Position numbers and translations under genes: made by a program. A DNA stretch of 63,992 nucleotides, counting the filler, from Licmophora abbreviata (lineage: Eukaryota): the NCBI GenBank assembly GCA_900291995.1. It is 13 parts of 13 records of this genome, joined end to end, with 100 filler letters (N's around TTAATTAATTAA, not from the genome) between each part and the next. Parts side by side here need not be neighbours in the genome. Positions count along the whole stretch, not along the records: positions 17,113 to 20,954 come from OLMU01004403.1; 12 more parts are not named here. One strand, written 5' to 3'. The notes under the pieces are model-generated. The model was not told the origin of the DNA. It was given only the letters and a program-made list of their open reading frames with translations, and made no database searches. Positions 10,558 to 63,079 of this stretch are shown here, piece after piece. How positions within the stretch are numbered: the stretch's first letter is position 1; the number at the start of each line of letters is the position of its first letter.

Positions 10558-10657
10558 NNNNNNNNNNNNNNNNNNNNNNNNNNNNNNNNNNNNNNNNNNN
10601 NTTAATTAATTAANNNNNNNNNNNNNNNNNNNNNNNNNNNNNNNNNNNNNNNNNNNN
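10558..10657. other. Artificial contig spacer N44-TTAATTAATTAA-N44 (first of 12)
   Basis: Identical spacers start at about 10558, 14496, 17013, 20955, 22816, 24210, 25727, 27329, 39920, 50364, 59978 and 62686. TTAATTAATTAA gives stop codons in all six frames. Confidence 0.97.
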
Positions 10658-16825: not shown

Positions 16826-18015
16826 GATAGACTAGTCTAGCCCTTCGATCGTCTAACCGAGGGTACCGGTACGAGCTAAACTTTGAGAAAAAAGAAAAGA
16901 ACGTTTTGTGAGACACATTGAGTCGAGTGAGTCAGTCCAGTGAAATGACTTTCCCGCCATTTTTGTTGAAGTATGCATATCCACATGACTGAAGAAACCA
17001 GATTGATCGAAANNNNNNNNNNNNNNNNNNNNNNNNNNNNNNNNNNNNNNNNNNNNTTAATTAATTAANNNNNNNNNNNNNNNNNNNNNNNNNNNNNNNN
17101 NNNNNNNNNNNNTCGAAAGAACAGTGCATCATCAAACTTTTGTTCGCGTTCCTTCATCGTCCGGTTCCAATGACAAGACAGTTCTTGACTATTTCTAGCC
17201 TTCGAAGCCTCTTGAGACGACTCACACCACCAGACAGGTGCTGATCCAGCACCATTAAGTGACTGTTACCGAGTGAGTCAGAATCTGGCCCTGGACTCTC
17301 GTTTCTTTCTGCAGCAAGAACATCTTGTTCGGGAGGGCAAGCAAGCGCCATGGTTCGACGATGGTTTCGGATTTCTGGCTCTAGGTTGCCGTATCGTTGT
17401 CCCCAGAGTACACGAGAATACCATAGAGCTCGCTGAAAGAGGCTGAACCGATAGAAGCAACATTTTGTGGAAGCATCTGACTGGTCAGCGGAGCTTTGGT
17501 CGCTCTTCGTTCTACAAGTCATTAACTTTGGTGAACCTCAAGCGAACACGATGATAAAGGAAGAAAGCGGCAGGGAAGTCTGCTTGTAGCCAGGGACTCT
17601 CGCCCCCTGTTCATATGAAGCATCCTTGCGTTACGTACCTGTGCGCGGCTAAATTACGCGGTCGAATTGCACGATGATGCGTAACCACGGTTCGGAAGGA
17701 CTGCGAAATTCAAAATGACCCTTTCGCTCGAGCTGCGCTTACAAAGAGTTTCTCAACCGGATCGTTTCTGAATATGATATTCGGATTATTCCCACTGAAG
17801 AAAGAAGTCGTCGGGGGCGTCGAGAGCGCAGGAGGGCGTTCTGTTGCTGTCCTTCGCGTCGATTGCGAAGCAGCTGCTGGATTGTCTCAAAGGCGAAAAG
17901 AAAATGACAAGATGCCGCGACTGCTTGTGCGGGTTTGTCCGCTGGCAGATTTGCGGATTTGGTTCTAGCCAACCAGACGTTACGGTTCATCCTGTCCATA
18001 AGTGACAGATCTGAA

Positions 18016-18239: not shown

Positions 18240-19568
18240 ATGGTCTTAGCGAACAGTGAACATCGAACGATGTCTAAGGCTGTTCCTTTGTCCAGGGAAG
18301 ATGCCAAGGTCTGCCAGAGTCTCCTGTCCGAAGCAGAAATGTTCGAAAAAGTGCCCTCACATCTTCAGAAAACGCTAATCAAGCAGATGAAGCTGCGAGA
18401 GATGAACAAGAACGAGAAACTCATACGACAGGGAGAGCCTACTGACCGCTTTTTCCTGCTCGAGTCAGGGGAGATCAGCCGGACCAATATCAACCCTGAG
18501 ACTGGAAAGGCTCGAACGGTAGAATTTGCAATCAAGGCCAAGTCCATCAACTCCATGCGAGTCCTCTCGGGCGACCCCGCGTTCACCACGGTGAGGTGCC
18601 ACTCGGAGAAATGTCGTGTTTTCGAAATGCTGAGATCCGACTTTATGAAGACACTTCACCATCAACCCGAAATCACCTTGGCTATCGCGGAAGGCTTGTG
18701 TGAACAACTCAGAAAAGGCTCCAAGAAGTTCGCTACTCCCTTGTTGGAACAGCAGCAACAAGATGTAAATGTCCCGGCCGTTTCGATCGCAGCGGGGATC
18801 GAGTCATACTACCGATCTGCGTTGAATGCCATGCTAAATACCAGGCTGACGGGTGTAAAGGCCGAACTTTTCCCGAATATGCATGTACAAGTCCCTGTCC
18901 GTATCGCTTATATCACAGGGTTCAAGGGGCTTCGAACCCTTTTTGACCACAAAGTCGATCCAGAGACGTACTGGTACCCAAACGCGGTTCGACTGGCGGC
19001 TGCAGTTAGTCCTGGAATCATCATGGCTCCGATTAGTTCAGTGCTCGAGGCGTCCAATGCAGGTCACATGAATCAGGAGTCCATGGCCACTCGGTGGATG
19101 CGGGGGATCGTCCCTCGAGCGGGCCGTGAAATCATATTTGGCGTGGGCCTCAACCAGCTCAGTGACTATTTTGAAGAACGACTGCAGCCCATGTTTCCGG
19201 GGCATCGGCTGATGGCCAATGCTGCTGGAAGCATCGCGGCGGGTGTCATCTCGGGCTACTTTTCCCATGTGCCTCACAACATTTCCACGTTTAAGCTCCT
19301 CGAGCCAAATGTTTCCTATCGCAACTTGTATCAGAAATTCGTTGATAAGAGTGTACCTCCCGTTGTCGACAAGATGGTGAGTTCATGGCCGTCATCCACA
19401 CGAGGATTTACAAGGACGCTCTTCGCGACATTGTTCCCGCGAGGCGTCATGATCAGAACGACCCAGATCGTTGGTTCTTTCATGATTCTGAATGGGACAA
19501 TAGCGCAACTCCAACTGAGAGAGCAGTCTAAGATTCTGCAAGCGGTTGGTGGATACGTAGGTGTTTAA
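18240..19568 (+). CDS. Cyclic-nucleotide-binding domain fused to a degenerate mitochondrial-carrier-like membrane domain
   Basis: N-terminal cNMP fold: LIRQGEPTDRFFLLESGEI..PAFTTVRC..VFEMLRSDFMKTL. The C-terminus has carrier-like segments GIIMAPISSVLE, WMRGIVPRAGREIIFG, AGSIAAGVISGYFSHVPHNISTFK and FPRGVMIRTTQI. Confidence 0.7.
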   Translation: MVLANSEHRTMSKAVPLSREDAKVCQSLLSEAEMFEKVPSHLQKTLIKQMKLREMNKNEKLIRQGEPTDRFFLLESGEISRTNINPETGKARTVEFAIKAKSINSMRVLSGDPAFTTVRCHSEKCRVFEMLRSDFMKTLHHQPEITLAIAEGLCEQLRKGSKKFATPLLEQQQQDVNVPAVSIAAGIESYYRSALNAMLNTRLTGVKAELFPNMHVQVPVRIAYITGFKGLRTLFDHKVDPETYWYPNAVRLAAAVSPGIIMAPISSVLEASNAGHMNQESMATRWMRGIVPRAGREIIFGVGLNQLSDYFEERLQPMFPGHRLMANAAGSIAAGVISGYFSHVPHNISTFKLLEPNVSYRNLYQKFVDKSVPPVVDKMVSSWPSSTRGFTRTLFATLFPRGVMIRTTQIVGSFMILNGTIAQLQLREQSKILQAVGGYVGV

Positions 19569-19717: not shown

Positions 19718-20716
19718 CTAGACAAAGACACTCCACCCGAGTTTTCCATCGCGTAGCAACTCCTTCCTTGCTTCAATCCACCATGCTGGATGAGGCGGGA
19801 GGTGTGGAATCGTATCTTCGGCCCCCCTCAGTGCAGGATGTGATCGAATGACGGTGTACCTGCCAAGAGTCGAGAGTTGATCGACATTCGACATGCCCAG
19901 TCGGAGAGCTGGTTCTACATCCAAGAGTCCATGAACTAGACTATTCCACTCGTCTGATGGCACTCTTGGAATGTCAAAGGAATGGTTCATGTAGGACTGA
20001 ATGCGCTCGGTGGCGAGCAAATCACTATTAGCATGAAACGGTGAACAGCCCTCCGCTATTAGGGCATAGCACATGCATCCCAACGACCACAAGTCCACGG
20101 CAAACGTGGGGTGACTTTCACCCAGCAGAGTTTCAGGACTAGCAAAGTCGGTGGTTCCGAGCAGCATGGTGAGCTGTCTACTATCAATCGCCTTGCCGTC
20201 CTTGTCCAGTTCTACCGCGGAAGCAAAGTCCGTTAAATGCAGAATCCCCGTTTCAGTAACCAAGACGTTGTCGGGCTTGAGATCACAATGAATGACTCTT
20301 TGAGCATGAATGAACTCGAGTGCCTCGACAAGCTGCAGCATGTAGTGAGGAACAACCGTAGAGTTCCATACGATTCTATTGTAGTGATGTTCTCGCTTGG
20401 CCATGACGTGGGCTAGCGTGCCGCGCGTCGCACACTCCATGACAAAGTACAAGAACTCCTTGTCATGAAACGATGCCAACAGTGCAATCACATGACAATT
20501 CGTACTCCACAGTGACTGAGAGAGCATCCGCTGCTCGTTCAGTAGCCCGCGAAGAACTCTCGGGTGTTTCTGGAGCCGAACTTTGCTCACGACCTTGATG
20601 GCAACCGGGCGACGCGTGGCCTTGTGACGCCCGAAGAAGATCTTGGCAAAGGCTCCCTCTCCTATCAGGCTTCCGACTCCATAGTCTTCTATACAGGGTT
20701 CGCCCGACGATGACAT
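19718..20716 (-). CDS. AGC-group Ser/Thr protein kinase, PDK1-like
   Basis: Contains GEGAFAKI, VAIKVV, LYFVMEC, HCDLKPDN, DFA(S), GTTDFASPE and DLWSLGC. Confidence 0.88.
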   Translation of the reverse strand: MSSSGEPCIEDYGVGSLIGEGAFAKIFFGRHKATRRPVAIKVVSKVRLQKHPRVLRGLLNEQRMLSQSLWSTNCHVIALLASFHDKEFLYFVMECATRGTLAHVMAKREHHYNRIVWNSTVVPHYMLQLVEALEFIHAQRVIHCDLKPDNVLVTETGILHLTDFASAVELDKDGKAIDSRQLTMLLGTTDFASPETLLGESHPTFAVDLWSLGCMCYALIAEGCSPFHANSDLLATERIQSYMNHSFDIPRVPSDEWNSLVHGLLDVEPALRLGMSNVDQLSTLGRYTVIRSHPALRGAEDTIPHLPPHPAWWIEARKELLRDGKLGWSVFV

Positions 20717-21109
20717 ACTCTAGAGAGCGCGCTGCACCTTTCCTCCACTCCACCGCAATCGCATGGCTTGTCGCTCATGGCATGCCGCTCGTCGCTCGTC
20801 GCAAACGTTCGAAACTCGAGACTTCCTCATTGTAGGTGTATTGGTTTTCCGACGGCGGGAGCTCGCGTTCGTTTGGAAGCTCCAAAACTAACAGAGGCCA
20901 AGGAGGAGTCCATTCCTTCCAGGCACCATCTGCCTAGTAAGCCGTTGTTTAGGGNNNNNNNNNNNNNNNNNNNNNNNNNNNNNNNNNNNNNNNNNNNNTT
21001 AATTAATTAANNNNNNNNNNNNNNNNNNNNNNNNNNNNNNNNNNNNNNNNNNNNGGCGACCCGAAGGCAGGAACAAACCTATCTCAGTGTTCTTGCTTGA
21101 TCCATCACA

Positions 21110-22223
21110 ATGAGGACGCTTTACACTTTTCTACTGCTGGGGGCAGCGCCCAGAACGTTGGCGGCCTTCGTTCTGGCTCCTTCTTGTGTCCCACACCGCA
21201 CTAGCAGCATTTCGAAACAGCAGCACACGCGTGAGTCTCGCCTTTTCGCCACTAGCACCTCCGCCAACCCCAAGGCGGGCCAGATTGTCACTGTCGACTG
21301 TGCTCTTACTCCCGAGGGAGACTTTGTTCCAGAACCACTCTTCGACACCCACGGGACTCTCACATTCGTGCTCGATAAGGGGAACTACTTGCCTGGACTG
21401 CACGATCTCATCGCTACAATGACAGTCGGTGAAAAAGTTGAGAATGTATCATTAGATGCTGGTTGGGGGGCCCGCAACGAAGATCTTGTGGCGGAGGTCG
21501 CCTTGAAAGACCTTGAACAGTCTCTGGACATTTCGCAGCTTCAAGTTGGAGTTCAGTTGCAGATGGCCAACGGTATGACGTGTGTCGTAACCGAACGGAA
21601 CGACATGACCATCACGATTGATGCCAATCCAAAACTGGCTGGGGCGGGCTACTCGGCCACTGTGGAGCTACTGAATGTCGAAGATGGCCCTGACCAGTGG
21701 GAGTATACGGATGCGGGCCCGGACGAAACTGGCAGGTATCAAGTCGCCACGGTCGCACTCGGTTGCTTCTGGGGTGGAGAACTGGAAATGGCAAGGCAGC
21801 CTGGTGTGGTCGGGACGCAGGTCGGGTATACGCAAGGCACAGTCGACAATCCTACATATGAACAAGTCTGCTCTGGAGGCACTGGTCATACAGAAGCCAT
21901 TCAAGTGGTATTCGATCCGTCAATTGTTTCATATGAGACACTAGTTCACCTGGCGATGGACCGTCTTGCCGAGAGTAAGTATCTCAAGAATCAAGTTGGA
22001 AATGACAAAGGGCACTCAATATCGGCACGGCGTCTACTATCACAATCCGCAGCAATTGAAGGTGGCTCAGGCCATTCTTGCATCTTTTGGGGAGGATTGT
22101 GTCACTGAGCTTCTGCCCGCAACGAAATTTTGGTCTGCCGAGAAGTACCACCAGCTGTATCTCCTAAAAGGAGGGCAGAGTGCCCGGAAAGGAGATGACG
22201 CAGCAATTCGTTGTTATGGTTAG
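21110..22223 (+). CDS. msrA: Plastid-targeted SlyD/FKBP-type PPIase - methionine sulfoxide reductase A fusion; frameshift near 22011
   Basis: Signal peptide ending TLAA-FVLAP. FKBP/SlyD part: LTFVLDKGNYLPGL..AGWG..TIDANPKLAG. MsrA part: GCFWGGE, GYTQG, PTYEQVCSGGTGHTEA, NQVGNDKGTQYR, AEKYHQLYL, IRCYG. One extra G splits the frame. Confidence 0.88.
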
Positions 22224-22263
22224 CAAAAGTAGACGTCATTGCTTGCTTACTGCTTGCAATATG

Positions 22264-25200
22264 TTACAGTACCAAGACAACTCTTCCACATCCACATTTC
22301 AGTACAAAAGCTGATTGACTATCTCTGTACCCAGGGATAGTTCCTGAGCTGACCACGGCCCCAGTGTCTCTGCCTGCCCTTAGATCTCTATTGATTCGAT
22401 TTGATTCAAACCAGGTACTCCCCAGTCCTTCAAAACACCCAGAAACAGGATTGGTCGCTTGGGGACTCCAGAAACTCAGGACCTTCAATGCACACATTTG
22501 CCTCACTTCGAAATCGATCTCTGTCCACATGATTGTGAAAGCGCTCCTGTACCTAGTACGATTTGGTAGAATAGGCCAGGAAGTCTGTTAGAAGATAGCA
22601 GAATCGATGATAATTTTGTCCAATTTAGATTGAGCTACCTAGCTGCAGTGGATCCAGTCAGCCGTAACGGTTGACTTCTCCCATCGGTCTCTGTTATGTT
22701 CAACATGTTCAACAGTTCGCCCTTCTATACTGAACCAGGGCCAAGGGCCAAGTATGAAGTCAGGTGAAAGAGTCACCCGGGGCTCGCAAGCCCATAATGG
22801 TCCTCAAATAAAAGANNNNNNNNNNNNNNNNNNNNNNNNNNNNNNNNNNNNNNNNNNNNTTAATTAATTAANNNNNNNNNNNNNNNNNNNNNNNNNNNNN
22901 NNNNNNNNNNNNNNNGCTCTTCTTTCTTTCCCCAAACATGATATCCACTTCTTTCATCTCAGATTACCAGAATATGTGCAAGTACCGGTATCTAGATGCA
23001 CAATCTTGATAGGAATGGTCACAAAATTTGCATCAAATGTGCCAAACGAAAACGCCTGAAAGTGTAAATAAAATTCACAGGACCAAGCATGAATGCAAGT
23101 ACGAGTATGAGTGAGATTGCAAAGAGCATTCTTTTTCCTCGTACAGAGCTTTGCCCCACTTCCGTGGAATAAGTCGGTTATTATTCCGGATGCACCTCGC
23201 CTTGTAGACAGGTAGCGCCGGGCAATGTTTTGATATCCACAGCCTGTAATTCCAGTAACTTTGCCCTGTCAGACACTGCTGGAGCTCCTTCTACGCTGTT
23301 GGCACATCGTTGTAGTCAGTCAGTCCATGGAGAGAGTAAATGCTGCTCTACGGGCCGTCGTTGCATGCACCTGTCAGGAGTAATTCCATTACTTCCCTTA
23401 AATTTTCTTAACTCAGGATCCGTCGTACATTTTGGTGACGTTTTTATGCCTGCAACAGTGTTGTGATATTTTTTCGAGGATTCAATTGCTGCCTAAGCGC
23501 CTAGATTTGACCGAACCAAATTATGAAGCTAATTTCTCATCGTGAGAACTTACTGTGGCACAAAGACAAATTTCTAATTTGGACGAACCTTTTCGAGCCA
23601 GCCCCTGGGAGCTAAGGGCAGGGGTTCGCTAGTAACGAGTGCATGAGATGGAGTTTTCCAGTTTTATTTGAGATACGGTGACAGCGAGCTGGGCGCTGTC
23701 ATTGGAGTGTGAATAAAAGGAAAAGAGCAAGAACAGATGTAGAGGGACTGCAAGCAGATGCTGACTGACTGCACATTACCTGAGGCCGGGAAGGAACATT
23801 CAGCAGCAAGAACAAAAGGTACTCTCATTTCTCGGTGAGCACCTACCGACCGGTACGGGTAAGAAAAAGAAAAAACCTTCAAGAATTGAAAAGCTCTGGT
23901 GCTTGATGGACACTATCCTCCATTTATAGAGTGAGTAGCTCATTTTTCATTTTCTCTATTTCTCTCGTCGGGCTGCTGTAGCCTGCCGCTAAGCTCATCT
24001 AACATTCATTGGCTGTACTCGTACATAAACAACATACCGGGAGCTTCGAATATGGTGAGGGATTTTGGGATTGTGAGCCAAAGCAGCTGGTGGAGGCCTC
24101 ATTCCACGTTTTGTCAAGCGTTTGAGTGCACCAGGTGCAGCGTTGGGGCATCCCCTGGGCCTGTGGCTTCGTATCGGAACAATGCGAATTCCTAATACCA
24201 CCCATGGATNNNNNNNNNNNNNNNNNNNNNNNNNNNNNNNNNNNNNNNNNNNNTTAATTAATTAANNNNNNNNNNNNNNNNNNNNNNNNNNNNNNNNNNN
24301 NNNNNNNNNCAGGGTCGTTGTCGAGCAATGATGCTTGTTGATTCTCTTCCCAAAAGAGTTGCGATGCCTGAATTGCAGCTTCTAACGCTGGAGAACTGAA
24401 ATGAAGAGTCCCCTCAATGACACCAGAAACAATCGAAACAAACTGCTTGGGGCCTTCTAAGTCAAAGTCCTTGTAGGAAGGAATGACTCCGGTGTACTTG
24501 CCTTGAGATAGCGGGGATGGAAGGTACAAGCAGCAGGGGTCGGCGAGCTGGCAAGGTAATCCCAAAGTACAGAAATAAAATCTCGACTAAAGTGCCACAA
24601 CCAGCAACATTGAATCTAAACCAAGAACAAAACAAAGAACAAAAACAGCAGTTTGAAACAGAATACAGTACAAAATAAGCAAGGAATCAAAACAAAGAAT
24701 GCAATGCAGCAAGACAGAAAGCTTACTGACTGGCTTTAGCAAGGGAGGGATTTCTTTCCTTGTTGGGGTTGGGGCCATGAACAGTCAAGACCTCCAACAT
24801 CAAAGTGACAACCTTAGAATAGAAAACCAAGCCAATCTTGTTATAAGTGGAACGTCCAGACAAGAAAGCAGACCATGTATTCAGAGTCCTCATCTTAGCT
24901 TTAACTAATGTAGGGACAGACACGGAAGACAAAACAACAGCCAAAGCCATGAAGCCAGTCAAGGTCATGCAAATTCCCAGCCGTCACACTGTAAGAGCTG
25001 TAAGAGGGTTCACCAAGAAAGCTTTCCAGCGTGTGAAGATGCGGTTCATGGAAGAGAACAAGGAGAAGAAACTGCAAAGCAACAAGCAAAGGTCTAGGGA
25101 ATCCTTCCACGGTTTTGGGAGGCTTGGCCCAGCGCGCCCTTTGGGCAAGTGGGAGTCCTTGCCAAACGTGGAGACCATCCGCTGGCTGTGTCATCTCCAC

Positions 25201-26520
25201 AACAGAAAGGGACTTTGTTTGTTTCCGGTAACCCTCCAAGTGACGGGACAAAAATCCATCCCGCAAGAGAGCAGGACCAACATTAGATATGGCGCGCTGG
25301 CTGTACTCAACAAATGAGTTGTCGCTTGACTGAACACCATATTTCTCTAGAAGAAAAGAGTGCATCTGCAGGGACTCAACATTCCTGGAACACAGAGCCT
25401 CCTGAGCTGTTTCCAAAGTATTATGAAACGTGTAGGCCTTGGTGTTGGCTTTCAAGATTTTGGCACTCCAGGGCTGCAGGTTACAAGGATTGGCAAGACT
25501 CAAGCAAAACACCATCCGCGACCCAGACAAAGATGCAACATCCAACTGAACATTCGAAACAAGGCGACTGGACACAGGAACCGACAAAAAGGGGAACAGA
25601 AGCGTTGGGTGCAAAACCATGTGCAAAAGAAAGAGAACAACAGATCCGGTGCTGGCCTTCGAAGACAGCAAGGTACAGACCCACAAATCTGTTGAAGAAC
25701 TGTTTAAAGTCACGTCAAACAGACTCNNNNNNNNNNNNNNNNNNNNNNNNNNNNNNNNNNNNNNNNNNNNTTAATTAATTAANNNNNNNNNNNNNNNNNN
25801 NNNNNNNNNNNNNNNNNNNNNNNNNNCACTGCATGATGCGGATGACACAAGGGCAAGGGAAGGCCGGATGCATTATCATGATATATCTCTCTGAAGAAGA
25901 CAACTACACACAACAAGATCCGCATCCTATTGACAGACAAAAAATAACTGCTGAATGCTCCTGATCCCCACTCAACAAGCCTGGATAGATAACACACACT
26001 TGCATGCACATCACAAAGGAAGGAACACCTCACACATGGTGGCAGGCTCCAGCTCTACTGAGCCCCACCAACAAGATAGCAGACAGGGACGGAAAGCAGG
26101 ACAGGTGAGTACAATAGACGGCTATCTTACTAGCCGGACAGCCACAATCAACAAAGATAAGAGACCAAACAGAGGCACACAAGTGAACAAGCTAAGGTTC
26201 AATGGTTCTCTTTGTTGTGTTCCGGCAAAGGCCAAGGACAGCCATGACTCAGTGATGGGGAACTGAGAGCACAGAGGATTTGTTGCTTCTTGTTGGTGGG
26301 TGTGGCTACTGGTACTAGCTAGCTAGCTGTACTTGCCGGCTTGGGGCTGCTCACCAGGCAGCCGCCAGCAGAGTAAGCCAACAATAGCACTGCTGGGTGG
26401 CTGCCCACATTTTTCAACTCTTTTCAGATTCATTTCAAGACTCTCAAGTTGTATGGCACTTCAGTAGTACGTCATAGAGAACCTCTTCAGAGGAATAGAC
26501 CCTATCTTACAGATTTGTTG
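22264..26520. repeat. Gene-poor, CpG-depleted, gap-rich region; probable decayed repeat/transposon sequence
   Basis: Three spacers lie within 3 kb, only short or broken ORFs are present, and CG dinucleotides are visibly few. No diagnostic transposase or RT motif was recognised. Confidence 0.4.
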
Positions 26521-30221: not shown

Positions 30222-31945
30222 ATGATTTCCAACACCTCAGAAGTGCCTACCCTCGCTGGAGGGTTCATTGACGTGGATATGGTGAAACGCCCCACTGAAG
30301 TCCGCCAACGTCGATCCAAGATCATTTGTACCCTTGGACCTGCTTGCTGGGACGTTCCTCAGCTCGAGATGCTCATCGACGCCGGTATGAATGTTGCACG
30401 TCTCAACTTCTCTCACGGTGACCACGACGGACACTTGGCTTGCCTCAACCGCCTGCGTGAGGCCGCGAGCAACAAGAATCGAAACATTGGTACGTCAAGG
30501 CTCGAATTTCAATTGTACGTTAGCTCGACCCCCGTACCGGTCGACTCAGTCCAATGGCTAACCACTCGTCGGCGCACTCAATCACGTACACAGCGGTTCT
30601 TCTCGACACTAAGGGCCCGGAGATCCGCTCTGGATTCTTCGCTGATGGTGCTAAAAAGGTCGACCTGGTCAAGGGCGAGACACTCATTCTCACTGGGGAT
30701 TACGCCTTCAAGGGCAACTCCCACAAGCTAGCTTGCTCGTATCCTTCACTCGCCGTGTCGGTCAATCCAGGCCAACAGATTCTGGTCGCCGATGGGTCGT
30801 TGGTGCTGACTGTCCTCTCGACGGATGCGAGCGCTGGTGAAGTCGCCTGCCGTATCGAGAACAACTGCTCGATTGGAGAGCGCAAGAACATGAACCTCCC
30901 TGGCGTCGTCGTCGACCTTCCCACTTTCACCGAAAAAGACGTCAATGATATTGTCAACTTTGGAATCAAACATGACGTCGACTTCATCGCTGCTTCCTTC
31001 GTCCGCAAGGCTTCCGACGTTCGCAACCTTCGTCAGCTCCTCGCTGAGAATGGAGGGCAGAAGATCAAGATCATCTGCAAGATTGAGAACCAAGAAGGAC
31101 TGGAGAACTACCCCAGTATTCTCGAAGCCACCGACGCCATCATGGTAGCCCGTGGCGATCTAGGAATGGAAATCCCGCCGAGCAAGGTCTTTTTGGCACA
31201 GAAGATGATGATTCGCGAAGCGAACATTGCCGGAAAGCCTGTCATCACGGCCACGCAGATGTTGGAGAGTATGATCAGCAACCCTCGCCCCACTCGTGCC
31301 GAGTGCTCCGATGTCGCCAATGCTATTTATGACGGGACGGACTCTGTGATGCTCTCCGGAGAGACAGCGAATGGCCCGTACTTTGAGCAAGCATGCCGTG
31401 TTATGTCGCGGACATGTGCCGAGGCTGAGAGCAGCCGAAACTACAACGAGTTGTTTCAGAGCATTAGGAACAGCGTGGTCGTTCGTTACAAGTTGAATCC
31501 TGGCGAATCCCTTGCTTCATCGGCTGTCAAGACCGCCATTGATGTCAAGGCCAGGTTTATGGTGGTCATGAGCGAAAGCGGAACGACGGCCCGCTACGTT
31601 GCCAAGTATCGCCCGCCGTGTCTCGTCATCTGCCTCACTCCCGATCCCACCATCGCCCGTCAGTCTAGCGGACTTCTCAAGGGCGTGCACTCCTTCGTCG
31701 TCAACTCCCTCGAAGACACCAATGGTCTCGTGAACGCCGTGTCGAACCAGGCAATCAAGTTCGGTTTGGCAGAGGAAGGCGACAAGATCTGCATCGTCTG
31801 TGGAAGGACGTATGGTCGAGGAGCCAATGATCAGGTCAAGGTAGAGGTGGTCCATCGGTACAGTCAAGATCTGGAGGGGGAATCTGATGCTCCTGGTCAC
31901 TTGAAGGCAGGAATCAGCTTTCCGGTGAGCCCTATCAGGAAGTAG
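30222..31945 (+). CDS. PK: Pyruvate kinase (probably cytosolic); intron 30490-30593
   Basis: Contains [52 protein letters not shown] and [10 protein letters not shown]. No obvious presequence. Confidence 0.96.
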
Positions 31946-32153: not shown

Positions 32154-33800
32154 TTAGGCATACTGGATCCTCATCACGTTGGTGGAACCAACACGGGAGG
32201 ATGTACCATGGACGACAACAATCGGCTCGCCCACGGTTGCGACACCTCGGCGCTTGAACCCCTCGATCGTTTCCGAAACAATGGAGTCAGTGGCATCCAA
32301 GGCTGGCAAGATGCGGGCTTCGCATCCCTTGAGGATTCCAAAACACTGACGAGCTACAGTCCCACTGGTTGTCAGTACCATGATGGGGCGGCCAGGACGG
32401 AACTTAGCGATCTGGGTTGCTGTCGCACCGGATTCGGAGCAAACGATAATCGCCTTGGCATCCACGTCAACGGCAGTCTTGACGGCCGATGACGCAATGG
32501 ATTCCGAGGTACTCAGCTTGCCGTGCGCTGAAGGGTGGAGTTTCGAACTGCCTGGAACAAAACGTTCAAGCTTGCAGCAGATTCAGCTTCGACGCAGGTT
32601 TCAGCCATGATGTTGACTGCAGCCGTGGGGTGTTCCCCGTTGGCAGTTTCACCGGAAAGCATGACGCAATCCGTGCCATCGAGAACAGCATTCGCAACGT
32701 CAGAGCATTCAGCACGAGTGGGACGAGGGTTACTGATCATACTCTCCAGCATCTGCGTCGCTGTAATAACAGGCTTGCCGGCAATGTTTGCTTCTCGGAT
32801 CATCATTTTCTGAGCCAAAAAGACCTTTTCGGGCGGGATCTCCATTCCAAGATCACCACGGGCAACCATGATTCCATCAGTTGCCTCGAGAATACCATCG
32901 TAGTTTTCCAAACCCTCAAGATTCTCAATCTTACAAATCACCTTGATATCCTTGTGCTCATCGCCGAGGACCTCACGGATCCTGGTGACATCCGACGCCT
33001 TCCGGACGAATGAGGCAGCGATAAAGTCAACACCATGCTTGCATCCCCAATCTTTAATGTCACCAATGTCCTTCTCTGTCAAAGTCGGAAGATCGACGAT
33101 GACACCAGGAAGGTTCATGTTCTTGCGCTCGCCGATAGCTGCGTTGTTCACGATACGGCAGCTGACCTCACCGGCCGCGTCGTCCGTAGCCAACACAGTC
33201 AAGACCAACGAGCCGTCAGCCACGAGTATCTGCTGTCCAATCTTGACGGAGTTGGGAAGGGAGGGGTAGGAGCAGGCCAACTTCTGAGCGTTCCCCTTGA
33301 ATTCGTAGTCAGTCGTTAGGACAAGAGTCTCCCCCTTGACTAGCTCAATCTTCTTGGCACCATCGGCAAAGAAACCGGAACGGATCTCCGGGCCCTTGGT
33401 GTCAAGCAAAACAGCTGTGGATGGTGTACAGAGATTATGCATGTGAGAGAGCATCGGTGAGTGATGATATTTGCTGCTGATTTTGGTTCCGGTAGTAGGT
33501 AAAAAGATCCGTTACGATTCTACACTCACCGACATGCTTGTTCTTGTTCTTGGCAGCTTCACGCAAGCGGTTGAGGCAGGCCAAGTGTCCTTCGTGGTCG
33601 CCATGAGAAAAGTTGAAACGAGCGACACTCATCCCCGCATCAATGAGTTCCTCGAGCTGGTCGACCTTCCAGCAAGCAGGGCCAAGCGTGCAGACAATCT
33701 TGGTCTGCCTCTTGGTCGGATCTGAAGGTTTTGTCACCTTCTCGAGCGTAATGTTGCCACCGCGAAGCTCTGGGCCGGCGAAAGTACTAGTCATGGGCAT
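32154..33800 (-). CDS. PK: Pyruvate kinase paralog; intron 33529-33415; frameshift near 32525
   Basis: Same PK motifs ([37 protein letters not shown]). The C-terminal domain ([27 protein letters not shown]) continues in another frame after a one-base loss. Confidence 0.94.
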
Positions 33801-34205: not shown

Positions 34206-36083
34206 ATGATGAAGTTGTCCGTTGTGATTGCTGCCCTCTTGGGGTCGGATGCCCTTGCCTTTACTCCGCGGGCACCCTTTAGGCCAGCCGTTCAGTCGAG
34301 CAGCGCGCGATCGATGGGCGTCGCGGACGACCTGGGTCTCCCGTGCGAGGACGAATGTGCCCTCGAGAGTTTCCCCAATCTGCCTGAAAGTGTCCACCCT
34401 GGAGTTCTCAGTGGCCAGCCCATGGTCGATCTGCTCAACCATGCTAAGGAGAATGGTACGTCTTTCGTTTGTGAGGAGAAATGCTTTCCGATTCGGCGGT
34501 GCATGCGCATCGGGGCGCGCCGTGCACCTCCCTCCATGGCATGAGACGAGACGAGACGCAACGAGAAAAACTCGTCTCAGAAGAAGGTCGATTCTCTGAC
34601 ATAGGAGTGGTTGTGAAAAGAGGAATGATTGTGCCGGCGTTCCTTTCCTCATCAGGCCGTCATGGTCGGGCGAACCATTTCCAGAGCTCGAGGAGAAAGT
34701 ACAGACCATTCGGTGACGTGGCAGTCAAAAATTGAGCGGTCGCGCTGATTGACACCGGTACCGGTACCCACTTCGAGCTATTACCCCCTCTACCTCCGTG
34801 ATATCTAACCACTTTTCCTTTATTTTTTCGCTACTGCCTGGACAGGATACGCGATCCCAGCTGTGAACTGCGTCTCCTCATCTGGAATCAATGCTTGCCT
34901 GGAGGCTGCTCGTAGGAACGATGCGCCCGTTATTATCCAGTTTTCGTCCGGTGGATCTCAGGTAAGTTGCGCTACCACCTGAGCGTCTTTGTAAATTGCA
35001 GCCTTGTTTATTTACTAAGTGTTGTAATATGTGCGCACTTCTCCCAGTTCTACGGCGGAAAAGGACTGGATAACAAGGATTACAGTGCCGCGATCGCCGG
35101 TGCTGTATCGGGCGCCTTCCATGTAAGAACGATGGCTGAGCAGTACGGAGTCCCTGTAATTCTTCACACTGATCACTGCGCAAAGAAACTTCTACCATGG
35201 ATTGATGGATTGATCGAGGCTTCGGAACGCTACTACAAAGACCATGGGGAGCCTCTGTTCTCGTCCCACATGATCGACTTGTCGGAGGAACCAATTGAGG
35301 AAAACATTGAGATCTGCAAGGAATACCTTGGACGCATGGAGAAGATCGGGCTACTTCTTGAGATGGAACTTGGTATCACGGGAGGAGAGGAAGACGGTGT
35401 GGACAACACTGACGTTGCACAGGAGGATCTATACTCCAAGCCGGAGGAAATTTACCAGGTGTACGAAGAGTTGAGCAAGATCTCTCCTATGTTCACTGTC
35501 GCCGCAGCATTCGGAAACGTGCATGGTGTATACAAGCCTGGAAATGTGCAGCTCGAGCCAGAAATTTTGAGCAGAGCGCAGGATTATATCTCGGACAAAC
35601 TTGGGGATGCTGCCCCCGCCGATCGAAAGCCTGTTTGCTTCGTGTTCCACGGCGGAAGCGGCTCAGATGTCTCTGATATCCAGAAGTCCATTGGCTACGG
35701 TGTGATTAAGATGAACATCGACACGGACACGCAGTGGAGCTACTGGGAGGGTATCAAGAACTTTGAAGAAAAGTATCACGATTACTTGCAGACTCAGATT
35801 GGAAACCCGGAAGGAGGTGAGCGCACGAATCGGATGAAGTCTTTGAATGACGCTCGGCCAATCGCTAATCATTCTGCGTCCTCCTGCTTTTTTAATCACA
35901 GCCGACAAGCCTAATAAGAAATACTACGACCCTCGGGAATGCATGCGTGCAGCCGAAATAGCCACGGTCGATCGTCTCTCGCAGTCCTTCAAAGATTTGA
36001 AATGTGTGAATATTTGTGGCCTTGGTGAAATGGCAGATGCAGGGAACGTTCTTGGTCCACGCCGAGGCGGTCTTCCTGTGTAA
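34206..36083 (+). CDS. FBA: Plastid class II fructose-bisphosphate aldolase (FBAC2-like), 4 exons
   Basis: Presequence MMKLSVVIAALLGSDALA-FTP. Class II motifs GYAIPAVN, LHTDHCAKK, SSHMIDLS, GITGGEED, FGNVHGVY, VFHGGSG, KMNIDTD and KYYDPR. Introns at about 34457-34846, 34962-35047 and 35817-35901. Confidence 0.95.
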
Positions 36084-36236: not shown

Positions 36237-37994
36237 CTAGTGACTATCACCCCCTTCGTCCAGGTCAGGATCTTCTTCCGGGTTCAGAACACAGTTGATA
36301 TCACTTCTCACGATTTGAGTCTTGATGAAAGGCTGTCGAAGAAGAGAGATAGAAACACATTAGCGATGACGATACAATGTCAGTGAGGCGGTTCCTGTAT
36401 ACCGGTACATACCATGTAGCCCGTTGCGAATAGAGAAACGATGGAGGCTCCCAGCACTGCTGAAATTACACTTTGTTCTCCAGAAAGATACGACAGAATG
36501 AGTGTTGACGCGATTGCGGTGCGAGTGATCGCCACGTTGATGCTGGCCGCCATGCACAAGCACGCCAGCTGAACGGGCACTCCAGGGATAAGGAACGTGA
36601 TGGCACGGCCGAACGCGGCGCCGGCCGCAAAGAAAGGAAAGATAAATCCTCCACGGTATCCGCCGGCCACGGTAAATGAGATGGCGATCATCTTCGCCAC
36701 TCCTACAAGGAAACATGTGAATGCGGAATTCATTTCAAAGTCGATCAGGCCGCTCGTTGGCCAAACATGTTCCAACGTGGAAGCAGGGCTCAAGGTTGCA
36801 AGCGTCTGAAACTCGCTCTCACCCCAAAACATGGTGTGAGGTATGAGCATGCCAAGTCCAACGACCGCCACGGCACCCAGAAGTGCTCGATACACAGCTC
36901 TGTCATCTCGAAGTAAATCGAAATACTGGAGTGCTGCAACGACTCTCCCATGAAATACAGCAAATAAAAATGCCACGAAGGCACCAACTAGACCCAGCGC
37001 GCACCCCACCAGTACCTGCTGGGGAGACGTGCCATCCAATTTCGTTGTAGCAATCGACCATATAGGGGCGATCGGAAGACGCGCCAGTGCGCGAAACACT
37101 GTCAAACAGACTTCACCACAGAAGATTGCTTCCAGCATGTGTTCAAAATATTCCACACCTGTGTCAACCACAAAAGAGAACACCTCACTTGATGGTTAGA
37201 GCACAAACATGCCGGAAAATGGGTGAGCACTTCATTGTAGTTTGTAGATACGTACCAAAGCGACTGTTTACCTCCAATGCGAACAAGGACCCTCCCAACG
37301 GACAGCCAAAGAAGGCAGCAAGAGCTCCTGCCATGCCCATCAGAGTATGCTTTCGAACGACGTTGCGATTTGTCTGACGAAATACTGTTCGGGAGGTGAA
37401 GCCTGCCAACGCCGCACAGATAGCCACTAGCGGCGCTTCAGGTCCCAAACTTCCTCCACCGAGAATGCTGAACTGAGAGGCGAGCAACATGGGCATCACG
37501 TGGTTCATCGCGATGTAGCCTTTCTCATGAACACATTTGATGGTGTAAGGCAGGTCCCCAGGATCGCCCAGATACTTCACAGAAAGCCCCACTCCGATGC
37601 ACATAGTGAACCCCACAAGAGGAATCCAGTATACGTAAGTAGATTCTGGCCAGACGTCTATGACATATTTGTTGGGAAGGGTGTGCCACATGTACTCGAG
37701 ACCAGCAAATAGTACAAAGTAATAGAGATAAGCGGCAACACCGCAAACGATGCCGACGACAAAGGCCACCACGACGCTCTGGGGAATGGTCCCCTCAGAG
37801 AAACTCCTGGCATCTTCCCAAAAACTAACCCTGGTTTTCATCATAACCCTCTCTTCAACCAGAGAATCCATTGTCTTGGTTGGCGTTTGCGATTGAGAGG
37901 AACCGTTCTCGGCTTTCTCGAGCAGTTGACCGCCATTAGACCCGTAGGAAGGATCCTTCAGTGTCACCATCGGGACCGTTTCTTGCTCGCTCAT
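36237..37994 (-). CDS. CLC-family chloride/anion channel-transporter, bacterial YfeO-like, no CBS domains; introns 37255-37159 and 36412-36333
   Basis: Contains GGSLGPEAP (gating-Glu motif), GMAGALAAFFGCPLGGSLFALE and GYRGGFIFP, with many TM helices. The spliced last exon is PFIKTQ..GGDSH*. Confidence 0.9.
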
Positions 37995-38821: not shown

Positions 38822-40210
38822 CTAGTTAAGAACATTTGTGCACTTCAAGTCCTCGGCAGCCTGGCACAAACGATCCGCCATGAAGATCTCGCCCTCTCGC
38901 AGAGCCATACGGGGATCGTAGTACTTCTTGTTGGGCTTGTCGGCACCGTCGGGATTTCCAATCTGACCCTGGAGGTAGTCGTGATACTTGGCTTCGTAAG
39001 AGCGAATTCCGTCCCAGAAAGCCCACTGAGTGTCGGTATCAATGTTCATCTTGATAACTCCGGCCTCGATAGCATACTGGATGTCTTCCGTAGATGAACC
39101 CGATCCGCCGTGGAACACGAATTTCATGGGCTTGGGGTCGTCACTGCCGAGCTTCTCCTGGATGTACTTCTGAGTGTTGTGAAGAATGACAGGCTTGAGT
39201 TCGACATTTCCAGGGGCATAGACACCATGCACGTTTCCGAACGAAGCAGCGCAAGTGAAAGCAGCGTTGGGAATTTCAGAAAGCTGCTGGTAGGCATAGT
39301 AGACTTCCTCGGGCTGAGTATAGAGGCGCGACGAGTCAATGTCAGTGTTATCGACGCCATCCTCTTCTCCGCCAGTCACACCGAGTTCGAACTCGAGCAA
39401 GCAGTCAATCTTGGCCATGCGCTCCATGTACTTTTTGCAGATACCGATGTTCTCCTCAAGGGACTCCTCGGACAAGTCGAGCATGTGCGACGAGAAGAGA
39501 GGCTCGCCGTGCTCCTTGTAGTACTCCTCGTTAGCCTCAATGAGACCATCGAACCAAGGAAGCCACGCTTTCTGGCAATGGTCAGTGTGAAGAATGACAG
39601 GGACGTTGTAGAGCTCGGCAACCTCACGGACGTGCTTGGCACCAGCGATGCATCCAGCAATGGAGGCGGCGTCGTCGGTGTTGTCAGCGGCCTTTCCGGC
39701 GATGTACTGTCCACCACCCTTAGAGAAGGTTACCATGATCGGTCCACCATACTTGGCAGCGGCTTCCATACAGGAATTGATGGAGTTAGTACCAACGATG
39801 TTGACTCCGGGCATGGCGAATCCAGCCTCCTTGGCGTGGTCCAGAAGGTCGACCAAGGCCTGGCCGGTGACGACTCCAGGCTTGACCGTGGCAGGGAGCT
39901 TAGCGAAAGCCTGAGAATGNNNNNNNNNNNNNNNNNNNNNNNNNNNNNNNNNNNNNNNNNNNNTTAATTAATTAANNNNNNNNNNNNNNNNNNNNNNNNN
40001 NNNNNNNNNNNNNNNNNNNCCCGGGAAAACGCTTCCAATGTGCTGTCGACCCCCCGAAAACAAGCGCAGGATAGTTCAAAGCATGAGACTGAACCGTACC
40101 TTGCTCTCAGTGGCAGTCATCTTAAGAGACGACCCCCGACGCCCGAAGGAGCCAGTGGGCGCGAAGGCCACAGCAGGGGCGATAAAAAGGGCGGCGGCGG
40201 CAAGCTTCAT
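38822..40210 (-). CDS. FBA: Plastid class II fructose-bisphosphate aldolase (FBAC1-like); first intron contains a gap
   Basis: Exon 1 is MKLAAAALFIAPAVA-FAPTG..MTATESK (40210-40100). Exon 2 has FAKLPATVKPGVVTG, LHTDHC, GVTGGEED, FGNVHG, FHGGSG and KYYDPR. Confidence 0.95.
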
Positions 40211-57478: not shown

Positions 57479-59977
57479 ATGCTTCGACGAACTGTAGCAA
57501 TTCGCCAGTTGCTGGCCAGACAACAACAGCGTAGTGTGAAACCGCAGAATGTGGTAGTGAGATCATTTCATGCCACTGGACTGGCAGGAGCCGATGCGCT
57601 CGACATGGTGGACACGTTCGCCCGCCGACACAGTGAGTACCAGCCTTGAGCAGCAATGCTGGGTAAAATTGCCGAGCCTTGCTTCTGTACATTTCCAATG
57701 GCACACATATCTCTCACCATAACTGCCTTTTTGCACTTCGGCTGCTCGACAGTGGGTCCTTCGGAAGGAGAAGCCAAGTCAATGTTGACCACGATTGGCT
57801 TTGACTCGTTCGACAGCCTCGTCAAATCGACCGTCCCTCCCAACATTCTCACAGACAAGCCTCTTGATTTGGAACCAGCCCGTACGGAATCGGAAGCCTT
57901 GGCTCGTATTCGTGAGTTTGCCGATCAGAACAAAGTCATGAAATCGTACATCGGAGCTGGATACTACGACACACAGGTCCCTCCCGTCATTCTTCGTAAC
58001 ATGCTGGAGAACCCTGGATGGTACACTGCGTACACCCCGTACCAGGCCGAAATTGCACAGGGACGCTTAGAAATGTTGCTCAACTTCCAGACCATGGTAG
58101 TTGACTTGACAGGACTTCCGATGGCGGTCGCTTCGCTTCTCGACGAGTCGACTGCCGCTGCAGAAGCCATGCAGATGTGCTTTGCGCTAAAGGGCAAGAG
58201 GGGGAAGAGAAACAAATTCTTTGTCTCGCAAGATGTGCACCCCCAAACCGTCGGACTCATCCAGACCCGTGCTGGTGCCATTGGTATTGACGTTATTGTC
58301 GGAGATCACTCTCACCAGGACTTTTCCTCTGGAGATTTCTGTGGTTCTCTCCTGCAATACCCGAACACGTACGGTTCCGTCGAATCGCCCGGCGAGTCCT
58401 ACGAGGCCTTCACGAAACGTGTACATGCTGCCGACGGCATGGTCATTTGCGCGACAGACCTCATGGCCTTGACCAAGCTCGCGGCGCCGTCGACGTGGGG
58501 TGCCGACATTGCCGTGGGATCGGCTCAGCGACTGGGCGTTCCCATGGGGTTTGGAGGTCCTCATGCAGGATTCCTCTCTACTTCTGACGAGTATTCCCGA
58601 AAGATGCCTGGTCGTATCATTGGTGTGACGGTGGATTCGACTGGAAAGCCCTGCCTTCGAATGGCGATGCAGACTCGTGAGCAGCATATTCGTCGTGACA
58701 AGGCCACGTCCAACATTTGCACGGCGCAAGCTCTGTTGGCAAACATGGCGGCTGCCTATGCTATTTACCACGGACCGGACGGTATGCTGGAAATCTCTGG
58801 ACGTATCCATGCCTTGGCGCGTGTGGCGCATCGCGAAATGCCAAGGCGGGATTCAAAGTGACGGAGGGCCCCTTCTTTGACACCTTTACTGTGGACACCT
58901 CGTCCAAGGGTATGTCTGCTGCTCAGGTGCAGGCTGGTGCTGTTAGTGTATCTGCCAATGTTCGTGTTATTGACGAGAATACGGTCGGTATCAGTATGGG
59001 AGAGGGTATTACTCGTGACGACCTCAAGAATCTTCTTGCTGGAGCCTTTGGCTTGACGGGCGCTGATGTCAGTGCCGATGCTTCCATGACCGAGGTGGAT
59101 GCCACCGTAGCGCGCGATGGAGAAATCTTGGAGCACCCGATTTTCCGCCAGCATCACTCGGAGACTCAAATGCTTCGATACCTAAAGGCTCTGGAGAACC
59201 GTGATTTGTCGCTGAACCACTCTATGATCTCGCTGGGATCCTGCACGATGAAGCTGAACGCGACCAGTGAAATGATTCCCGTCACGTGGCCCGAGTTTGC
59301 CAACATTCACCCGTTTGCTCCGACAGACCAAGTGACTGGATACCACGGGCTGATTGAGGATCTCAACAAGGATCTTTCGGAAATCACGGGCTTTGCAGCC
59401 GTCAGTGCACAGCCCAACTCGGGTGCCACTGGCGAGTACGCCGGACTGCTCGCCATCAAGAAGTACTTGGAGTCCAAGGGCGAAGGGCACCGAAATGTTT
59501 GTCTCATTCCCAAGAGTGCTCATGGCACCAACCCTGCCAGTGCGACCATGGCTGGGCTCAAGGTTGTTGTTGTGGACAACGATGAACAAGGAAACATTGA
59601 CATGGCCGATTTGCAGGCCAAGATCGCCAAGCACGAGAAGGATCTTGCGGCCTTTATGGTTACCTATCCTTCTACCTTTGGTGTTTTTGAGGAGGCGATT
59701 GTGGAGATTATTGACGCTGTGCACGCTGCCGGTGGTCAGGTGTACATGGACGGAGCCAACATGAACGCTCAGGTCGGGCTTACCAGCCCTGGGGCGATCG
59801 GAGCTGATGTCTGTCACTTGAATCTTCACAAGACTTTCTGCATTCCTCACGGCGGTGGGGGACCGGGTGTGGGATCTATCGGTGTCGCTGCCCATCTCGC
59901 CCCTTTCCTTCCAGGACACAAGGTGGGGCCGGAAGCGTCCGGAAACCTCTGCGGCAATGACATTTGTGTACCAAAGG
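57479..59977 (+). CDS. GLDP: Mitochondrial glycine decarboxylase P-protein; intron ~57633-57752; frameshift near 58839; 3' end lost in gap
   Basis: Mitochondrial-type leader [14 protein letters not shown], then [51 protein letters not shown] and [18 protein letters not shown] (PLP lysine). Confidence 0.96.
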
Positions 59978-60219
59978 NNNNNNNNNNNNNNNNNNNNNNN
60001 NNNNNNNNNNNNNNNNNNNNNTTAATTAATTAANNNNNNNNNNNNNNNNNNNNNNNNNNNNNNNNNNNNNNNNNNNNCTCAACAAAAGCCCAACGCAAAT
60101 AGTAGCAAACAACGACGGGACTGTGTGGAGTGCTCTGTTGTCGCTTACAGCTCTGTGAGCATTTTTTCTTCCTCTGCCCCGACTCGCAATTGCTCTTATA
60201 GTCTCTATAACAAGAAAAC

Positions 60220-62490: not shown

Positions 62491-63079
62491 ACCCGTAGAG
62501 ATGACATGTGACGGGAACTGCTCGAGGATGCGAATACCATGTTTTAAGTGGCGGGTCCCAAAAATTTCAATTTAAAAGCGCTTAGGGCTTAAAAGAAATA
62601 AATAGTTATGTATTTTATATATGGAATATATGTTTTCATGTGAAATTTGTGTAGGTACTTATCAGATATGATCCATTGAAAGTCCNNNNNNNNNNNNNNN
62701 NNNNNNNNNNNNNNNNNNNNNNNNNNNNNTTAATTAATTAANNNNNNNNNNNNNNNNNNNNNNNNNNNNNNNNNNNNNNNNNNNNTCACCACATCGTGAT
62801 GAACGCCGCAGTGCGCCGCAAGTTGGATCAGATTTTCATTTCGCTTGAAAGTTTGTGTTGTCGAAACCAGGAATTTTGAATTTTGAGCTCCCAAAATTCA
62901 ATTTTATGAAAGTCCTCCTCTTTTTACTAAAACTGAGTATTGAATATCCAGATTCCTCATTGTACGCGTTTTGTAGTACATTTTGTACAAAGTATTGGCA
63001 TCTTGCATTCAGCCCAAGACTTCAGAAGCGTTTTTCGCCTTCGGTCCAAAGATCCGAAGTGCAGCCGGCAGATTTGACC

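Follow-up and report, generated by a model that had tools for sequence, protein, structure and literature searches.

The stretch of Licmophora abbreviata DNA analysed here, which is 63,992 nucleotides long and is referred to below as the window, carries a gene that joins an N-terminal domain of the cyclic-nucleotide-binding (CNB) type to a C-terminal domain whose predicted structure is a very divergent form of the SLC25 (mitochondrial carrier) fold (Table 1). A preliminary description of this locus had reported one uninterrupted open reading frame (ORF) of 442 amino acids, and the frame was indeed recovered as such on the plus strand, with an ATG start, in-frame stops just 5' of it and no N run inside it. 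Since 413 database proteins match it at E <= 1e-3 in a word-indexed search, the best of them at E 2e-215 with 75-76% identity over 97-99% of the length, the ORF is far beyond chance and a genuine gene. When 1.84 billion cluster representatives were scanned exhaustively with HMMER, 799 matched at E <= 1e-3, and 116 of these reached E <= 1e-30. The Licmophora protein itself is absent from both of these protein collections, and its closest named relatives belong to the raphid pennate diatoms Seminavis, Fistulifera, Cylindrotheca, Nitzschia and Epithemia.

Table 1. Features of the 442-residue protein and its gene, in window coordinates (AF2, AlphaFold2 model of the C-terminal domain)
Feature	Residues	Position	Strand	Basis and remarks
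Whole gene		18240..19568	+	single uninterrupted ORF, 442 amino acids plus stop codon, ATG start
CNB-type domain core	53-139	18396..18656	+	Pfam cNMP_binding; whole fold about residues 15-160
Degenerate phosphate-binding cassette (INSMRVLSGDPAFTT)	103-117	18546..18590	+	HMMER register; column counts
Linker, sensor C-helix to helix 1 (SKKFATPLLEQQQQDVN)	161-177	18720..18770	+	conservation
Helix 1	178-204	18771..18851	+	AF2, conservation; E188, Y191, R192, S193; without signature proline
Helix 2	214-238	18879..18953	+	AF2, conservation; R221, K229 invariant, R232 near-invariant
Helix 3	247-273	18978..19058	+	AF2, conservation; P258-G259, P264 invariant; remnant P264-I-S-S-V-L-E270
Helix 4	290-318	19107..19193	+	AF2, conservation; R293, R296, N305 invariant; E297, Q306 near-invariant
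Helix 5	323-354	19206..19301	+	AF2, conservation; small-residue G330..G335..G339, then P345-H-N-I-S-T-F-K352
Helix 5-6 loop	355-402	19302..19445	+	AF2; three short helices, motif F399-P-R-G402
Helix 6	403-440	19446..19559	+	AF2, conservation; R406, N418 invariant, Q409 near-invariant

The same joining of domains recurs throughout the family. Among the matches listed, 110 of 120 homologs carry the CNB family PF00027 and match over their full length, some MMETSP transcripts labelled complete being among them, and the fusion occurs in diatoms, in oomycetes (Phytophthora, Aphanomyces, Peronospora and others), in red algae (Porphyridium and MMETSP labels starting 'Rhodos' and 'Timsp'), in cryptophytes (Hanusia and a label starting 'Prote'), in a record labelled Colp12, which we take to be a colponemid, and in Euglenozoa (Euglena, a diplonemid, a prokinetoplastid and Cryptobia/Trypanoplasma; Artemidia and Papus are likewise Euglenozoa by taxonomy). 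The other ten homologs lack the CNB domain and begin inside it. These ten could be taken as a sign that the fusion is an artefact, produced by read-through of two neighbouring genes or by mis-assembly; yet they start at an internal CNB Met, as truncated gene models would and as they look to be, the Licmophora frame is single and free of N runs, and the fusion is present in complete transcriptome ORFs and in five or more major lineages, so that we regard an artefact as a negligible prospect. No animal, fungal or land-plant member was found among the matches listed, where no search was aimed at their absence, and pattern scans for prokaryotic and viral relatives gave 9 and 19 stretches, none of them confirmed, which is weak evidence of absence. 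In a diverse set of members the mean identity to the Licmophora protein is 0.50 for the C-terminal domain and 0.23 for the sensor, the former being thus twice as conserved, and an identity of about 50% is kept in the C-terminal domain from diatoms to euglenozoans.

The N-terminal domain belongs to PF00027 (cNMP_binding), and the cNMP/CAP-type domain put forward in the preliminary description is upheld. The Pfam match scores 36.1 bits (E 6.5e-9) against a cut-off of 27.5, and the folded model of the domain, a beta-barrel plus helices, resembles the cyclic-nucleotide-binding domains of CRP, PKA-R, PKG and HCN/AKT1. When a profile of the whole protein was compared with PDB sequences, only CNB-domain proteins were found among the best 60. 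An N-terminal Ca2+ sensor of the EF-hand type was not found, no EF-hand family matching the 442-residue protein at E <= 10 in Pfam. Two cysteines of the CNB beta-barrel, C120 (18597-18599) and C125 (18612-18614), lie in the pattern TV[KR]C-x4-C and are near-invariant in the close family, and C120 is also kept in many distant members.

In classical CNB domains the Gly-Glu and the Arg of the phosphate-binding cassette hold the ribose and the cyclic phosphate of the ligand. HMMER alignments to PKG and to PKA-R / Toxoplasma CNB chains place I103-N104-S105 at the Phe-Gly-Glu position and A114 at that of the Arg, and so the missing FGE..R remarked upon in the preliminary description is borne out, with N104-S105 and A114 standing there instead. 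The loss is family-wide: the cassette Glu is found in 0 of 30 sequences of the close set (A1) and 0 of 39 of the diverse set (A2), and an Arg in the canonical column in 0 of 31 and 0 of 42, respectively; in four divergent members it is the column next to the canonical one, on its C-terminal side, that holds an Arg. The CNB-homology domains of plant channels are not known to bind a ligand. Because the cassette is without its Glu and Arg, it is more likely, as judged from the sequence, that the N-terminal domain is a CNB-homology domain which binds a ligand other than 3',5'-cyclic AMP (cAMP) or cyclic GMP (cGMP), or binds these in an unusual way.

This bears directly on the strict proposal of the preliminary description, in which 3',5'-cAMP or cGMP would bind to the N-terminal domain and thereby gate the carrier. 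The proposal draws on the above-threshold cNMP_binding match and the clear CNB fold, on the four divergent members whose Arg lies one position past the canonical one, and on the fact that CNB domains do gate transporters and channels, SLC9C1, HCN and CNG entries being among the matches. It has against it the degenerate cassette, whose Glu and Arg are missing in every family member examined, and we consider the label 'cyclic-nucleotide-gated' decidedly improbable. The suggested tie to CO2/cAMP signalling in diatoms likewise found no support, since the family is not diatom-specific.

Between the sensor and the first helix of the C-terminal domain lies a short linker in which S161, K163 and T166 are near-invariant and P167 is invariant in the close set (A1). 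Its mean identity to the Licmophora protein, 0.69 in the close set and 0.40 in the diverse set, is above that of the CNB domain, and its predicted local distance difference test (pLDDT) score is low in the full-length model.

Since the Foldseek matches listed for the full-length model were all to CNB domains, the C-terminal domain (residues 171-442) was modelled alone with AF2 from a 74-sequence alignment. The model reached a mean pLDDT of 95.0 and a predicted template-modelling (pTM) score of 0.89, and it contains six long helices of 25-38 residues, hereafter H1 to H6. H1 and H2 are connected by a 9-residue loop without a short matrix helix, a short helix (282-285) followed by R288-G289 stands ahead of H4, and conservation within the domain is lowest in the H5-H6 loop, which would lie on the matrix side, going by SLC25 topology. 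When the model was compared with PDB by Foldseek, the 11 rows listed for ranks 1-12 had template-modelling (TM) scores of 0.44-0.58 and E values of 6e-4 to 5e-2, and they comprised UCP1 (8hbv, 8g8w), ADP/ATP carriers (4c9h, 4c9g, 4c9q, 6gci) and Tetrahymena complex-IV chains, which we take to be the carrier-family subunits of that complex, their titles not saying so. Among the matches listed further down were three more ADP/ATP-carrier entries (TM 0.44-0.49), and the others scored 0.14-0.25. Against BFVD, 11 of the top 12 were named mitochondrial carrier proteins of large DNA viruses. The top carrier matches in both libraries cover 231-239 of the 272 residues, and the TM scores of 0.44-0.58 go with a root-mean-square deviation (rmsd) of 4-6 A. 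The nearest named clusters in the ESM Atlas, to be read as leads only, were 'mitochondrial carrier' at 0.89, 0.85 and 0.84. The strong structural matches are thus only SLC25 carriers (UCP1, ADP/ATP and giant-virus carriers), a six-helix carrier barrel is present in the predicted structure, and on the strength of the model the C-terminal domain is a very divergent SLC25 (mitochondrial carrier) six-helix fold. The carrier-like C-terminal half of the preliminary description therefore stands at the level of fold, by AF2 and Foldseek, and is not borne out by the Mito_carr profile of Pfam, to which it gives no match. The two results on which that description had made itself depend, an SLC25-like fold and conservation of the fusion in homologs, were both obtained, the fold as a prediction.

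Recurrent Pfam matches in the relatives point the same way. Among the matches listed, the only recurring families in relatives are cNMP_binding and PF18405 (SLC25_like), the latter with sub-threshold matches in 4 of 29, 9 of 43 and 18 of 147 relatives (E <= 0.1 in the set of 147). These matches always fall on the last 100-130 residues and are collinear with positions 141-275 of the 285-position profile, and the best of them reaches E 3e-6 and 26.9 bits. One paper that names PF18405 only lists the family in a correlation, without describing it in the part of the text available.

Because the hydropathy of the helices is low, as detailed below, we compared the variable alignment positions in 35 full-length members. 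In the six long helices these positions are 5% charged and 63% hydrophobic with a mean Kyte-Doolittle (KD) value of +1.30, against 34% charged, 29% hydrophobic and a mean KD of -1.06 at the variable positions of the CNB domain of the same proteins. Apolar variable positions of this kind would be expected in a bundle that turns its outer surface to lipid and keeps its conserved polar residues on the inside. Furthermore, R221 and K229 (H2), R293 and R296 (H4) and R406 (H6) are invariant in the 74 sequences, and they lie on even-numbered helices only. The even-numbered helices of SLC25 carriers bear the substrate contact points, and that of H6 almost always has a positive charge (PMC7611774; this and the other papers cited are drawn on for the portions of their text available). 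The invariant basic residues could make up a putative binding-site-like core at these contact points.

Taking the two domains together, we give about an even chance to the reading that the protein is a ligand-regulated SLC25-fold transporter, that its solute is anionic or zwitterionic, and that its sensor probably does not bind cAMP/cGMP in the classical manner; the preliminary description thus holds in its fusion of a CNB-type domain to a degenerate SLC25-like domain and finds no support in its cyclic-nucleotide gating. The embedding in a membrane, the transport, the charge of the substrate, the location and the regulation by the sensor are what we infer. The C-terminal 265 residues would form a closed six-helix SLC25-fold barrel with an apolar, lipid-facing surface, inside which near-invariant polar and basic side chains, largely those of H2, H4 and H6, would bind an anionic or zwitterionic metabolite. 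The most likely location would be the mitochondrial inner membrane, with both termini and the sensor on the intermembrane-space side, a topology assigned from established knowledge of SLC25 carriers. The CNB-type sensor and the short conserved linker would open or block the carrier on ligand binding, a switch modelled by analogy on the EF-hand domain and amphipathic helix of the ATP-Mg/Pi carriers (PMC7611774). As both SLC25 salt-bridge gates appear eroded, this gating could not follow the canonical carrier cycle.

The erosion of the gates is among the observations that weigh against a ligand-regulated transporter. The signature Px[DE]xx[KR] on H1, H3 and H5 makes the matrix salt-bridge network of SLC25 carriers (PMC7611774). 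In the Licmophora protein, where the motif positions were assigned by reading the sequence and not by residue-level structural alignment, both eroded strings given in the preliminary description are present in the translation (PISSVLE, 264-270, and PHNISTFK, 345-352); the charges are gone on H3 (P264-I-S-S-V-L) and H5 (P345-H-N-I-S-T) with the proline only kept, and H1 is without a proline after its first turn. Because the replaced residues are themselves conserved across the family, the loss is, as judged from the alignment, a stable alternative state and not decay. The RG..PR..R elements of the same description are also there (R288-G289..P292-R293..R296 and R401-G402..R406), and aromatic-x-Arg-Gly elements stand ahead of H4 (W286..R288-G289) and H6 (F399..R401-G402). 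The motif [WYF][KR]G is an SLC25 carrier motif, and a further motif, [FY][DE]xx[KR], forms the cytoplasmic network on H2, H4 and H6. Such a cytoplasmic salt-bridge network is named for SLC25 carriers (PMC7611774). Here the end of H4 reads F311-E-E-R314, with the spacing off by one and conservation of 0.57-0.80, E428-x-x-K431 of H6 has conservation of 0.26 and 0.62, and F235-D-H-K238 of H2 is poorly conserved, so that the cytoplasmic network would be vestigial at best.

Other points of the same tendency come from profiles, repeats, hydropathy and the sensor. Pfam Mito_carr (PF00153) has no match in the 442-residue protein at E <= 10; likewise, no Pfam family matches residues 171-442, and PF00153 is neither listed for 43 relatives nor found among the 25 families listed, out of 36, for 147 relatives. 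A profile of the C-terminal domain found no carrier among PDB sequences at E <= 10, the only three matches (E 0.12-0.22) being at chance level. No relative reaches the PF18405 cut-off of 34.5 bits, and the Licmophora protein itself is without a PF18405 match. When the C-terminal domain was divided into its three thirds and these were compared by hhalign, E values of 0.03-0.09 at a probability of about 1% were obtained, which are not significant; the short alignments pair H1 with H5 and H2 with H4 in a sensible register, the match being weak. The best 19-residue hydropathy window scores 1.48, and five of the six helices are below 1.0. As to the sensor, a CNB-type domain with neither the Glu nor the Arg of the cassette may have no small ligand at all, and the geometry between the two domains is not confidently predicted (pTM of the full-length model 0.55).

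Several of these observations would suit a bundle of helices that is soluble or only peripheral to the membrane, be it an enzyme or a binding protein, and whose likeness to carriers came about by convergence. No sequence match to carrier profiles and no internal repeat is significant, no 19-residue window attains the usual Kyte-Doolittle membrane threshold of about 1.6, many His, Arg, Glu and Asn residues are invariant as they would be in an active site, and structural matches of helical bundles call for general caution. What speaks against such a bundle is that the variable helix positions are hydrophobic, with the 5% of charged residues standing against 34% in the CNB domain, that three structure libraries give only carriers near the top, over 231-239 of 272 residues, and that the SLC25_like matches recur and the carrier-style motif remnants follow one another in the right order. 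We hold a soluble bundle to be very unlikely.

The motif losses bear on the main alternative, in which the domain derives from SLC25 and does not transport: the protein would be an insertase, scramblase, tether or scaffold like MTCH1/2 and SLC25A46, possibly of the outer membrane, and the CNB-homology domain would be an interaction or regulatory module. Two of three signature prolines (P264 and P345) are kept here and the charges of both networks appear lost, and the same motif loss marks the atypical outer-membrane proteins MTCH1, MTCH2 and SLC25A46 (PMC7611774), which is one more consideration against a transporter; the low hydropathy and very polar helices, and a CNB domain without its ligand-contact residues, fit this alternative as well. 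On the other side, six long helices are predicted with high confidence here, whereas the insertase groove of MTCH2 arose by helix loss and leaves five transmembrane segments (PMC12934571, 10.64898/2026.08.26.747330). Each of H2, H4 and H6 has at least one invariant basic residue, which resembles the arrangement of contact points in carriers, and ACT and CNB modules are typical small-molecule sensors. Moreover, the MTCH insertases are described as holozoan (PMC12934571, 10.64898/2026.08.26.747330), and the present family is seen only in algae and protists. Such a non-transporting protein appears unlikely to us, and a ligand-regulated SLC25-fold transporter is the reading that we retain.

Comparison with known systems makes clear in what respects this putative transporter would be unusual. 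Relative to the SLC25 carriers (UCP1 and the ADP/ATP carriers, PF00153), it has no profile match, its TM scores are only 0.44-0.58 at the 4-6 A rmsd given above, the signatures of H3 and H5 have no charges left and that of H1 not even its proline, a vestige of the cytoplasmic network would remain at best, the short H1-H2 matrix helix is absent and the H5-H6 loop is enlarged. PF18405, titled 'Mitochondrial SLC25 homolog', is approached only through the collinear matches of relatives, the best having 26.9 bits against the cut-off of 34.5. With the ATP-Mg/Pi carriers (SLC25A23/24/25) and the aspartate/glutamate carriers it shares a layout in which a soluble sensor at the N-terminus is followed by a conserved linker of small size and then by the carrier fold. 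In the ATP-Mg/Pi carriers the linker helix shuttles between sensor and carrier and thereby switches transport (PMC7611774, PMC5369052, PMC6283063). It differs from these Ca2+-regulated carriers in that its sensor is of the CNB type (plus ACT in paralogues) and not made of EF-hands, in that its carrier part is non-canonical, and in that regulation is here proposed only. MTCH1/MTCH2 and SLC25A46 have kept signature prolines and lost the charges of both networks (PMC7611774), as it appears to have done itself, whereas they are without a sensor domain and the family here comes from algae and protists; MTCH2 has five transmembrane segments with a lipid-open groove (PMC12934571, 10.64898/2026.08.26.747330), against six predicted helices here. 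A CNB fold joined to a membrane transport module is also seen in SLC9C1, HCN/CNG and the plant AKT1/SKOR/KAT1, several of which are top matches over residues ~9-165, and NTT nucleotide transporters fused to CNB domains are mentioned in PMC6995639. In the CNB-bearing channels, NHE and NTT proteins the CNB domain is C-terminal, whereas in the present protein it precedes a fold of the SLC25 type and has a cassette without Glu and Arg.

The N-terminal part is not the same in all members. Ten relatives are longer than 637 residues, and nine of these have 658-726 residues, including two Thalassiosira proteins and an MMETSP 'complete' transcript; an ACT domain (PF01842, precomputed) stands ahead of the C-terminal domain in 8 of the nine, and one also has PF00027. 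In the long relative P0161 the ACT and cNMP_binding domains occur together, with ACT ahead of CNB. The tenth, a 1107-residue Phytophthora model with WD40 repeats, may have arisen from the merging of genes in annotation. The CNB domain is missing from some relatives, whose N-termini are rich in Ala and Ser. In a FastTree phylogeny of 248 C-domain columns from 33 chosen sequences, midpoint-rooted and with few taxa, the ACT forms (P0319-P0326 and P0161) made a clade of their own with a Shimodaira-Hasegawa-like (SH-like) support of 1.0. The red-algal sequences (P0090, P0101 and P0308) grouped with the pennate-diatom CNB forms at an SH-like support of 0.997, and the oomycetes were placed elsewhere. 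Such a grouping might mean that the diatom copy came from a red-algal endosymbiont, or it might be an artefact of sparse sampling.

A further reading may be built on this variety, though we think it doubtful: the family would be ancient, perhaps dating back to the last eukaryotic common ancestor, and sensor-gated, it would have discarded both salt-bridge gates in favour of gating by an exchangeable N-terminal sensor (CNB-homology, or ACT plus CNB), and it would be not a strict exchanger but a uniporter or channel, gated by some metabolite that is neither cAMP nor cGMP. Amino-acid carriers are marked by R-[DE] at contact point II. Since the invariant R296 and near-invariant E297 of H4 can be read, in a putative register, as this R-[DE] pair, they hint, together with the ACT-bearing paralogues, at amino-acid-type solutes.

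The genes around the ORF are ordinary, diatom-type nuclear genes, and no carrier was found among the 24 long ORFs of the window. A Ser/Thr protein kinase ORF of 332 amino acids (Pkinase, E 4e-49; 19718-20716, minus strand) converges on the 3' end of the gene at a distance of about 150 bp; a functional tie between the two was considered and dropped, as there was no evidence for it. Elsewhere in the window there are two pyruvate kinase ORFs (30554-31945, plus; 32513-33454, minus) and two ORFs for class-II fructose-bisphosphate aldolase (35132-35914, plus; 38822-39814, minus), that is, duplicated glycolytic genes within 10 kb of the joined window, whose parts may not adjoin in the genome. A CLC chloride channel (36380-37994, minus) and the glycine-cleavage P-protein (GDC-P; 57656-60033, plus) are each represented by two adjacent ORFs on the same strand, which probably reflects introns, or for GDC-P the N run at 59978-60077, and not broken genes. 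The 24 N runs of the window form 12 pairs of exactly 44 N with 12 bases between them (for example at 10558-10657, 17013-17112, 20955-21054 and 62686-62785), and none touches the gene. The GC content falls to 0.42-0.44 in 22001-26000, against about 0.50 elsewhere, with an AT skew of +0.23 at 24-26 kb and several N runs within.

Full-text searches for the fusion or for the PF18405 family found no paper, subscription journals and InterPro/Gene3D annotations being outside their scope. Members are publicly named 'hypothetical protein', 'cNMP' or 'cyclic nucleotide-binding domain-containing protein', and a superfamily-level 'mitochondrial carrier' tag may exist on member entries. The family is thus old, widespread among algae and protists and apparently unstudied. 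What can pass through the mitochondrial inner membrane is decided by the SLC25 carriers, and in the available text of PMC7611774 the sensor domains on them are described only as being of the Ca2+/EF-hand type. What would be new here, going by the predicted structure, is that the sensor coupled to the SLC25 fold is of another kind and that the carrier domain is non-canonical. If this is true, a second, unrelated class of sensor on the carrier fold would amount to a new regulatory principle for organelle transport, and the family, present in ecologically dominant algae such as the diatoms and in oomycete pathogens of plants and animals, would be a natural test of a carrier fold working without both of its salt-bridge gates.

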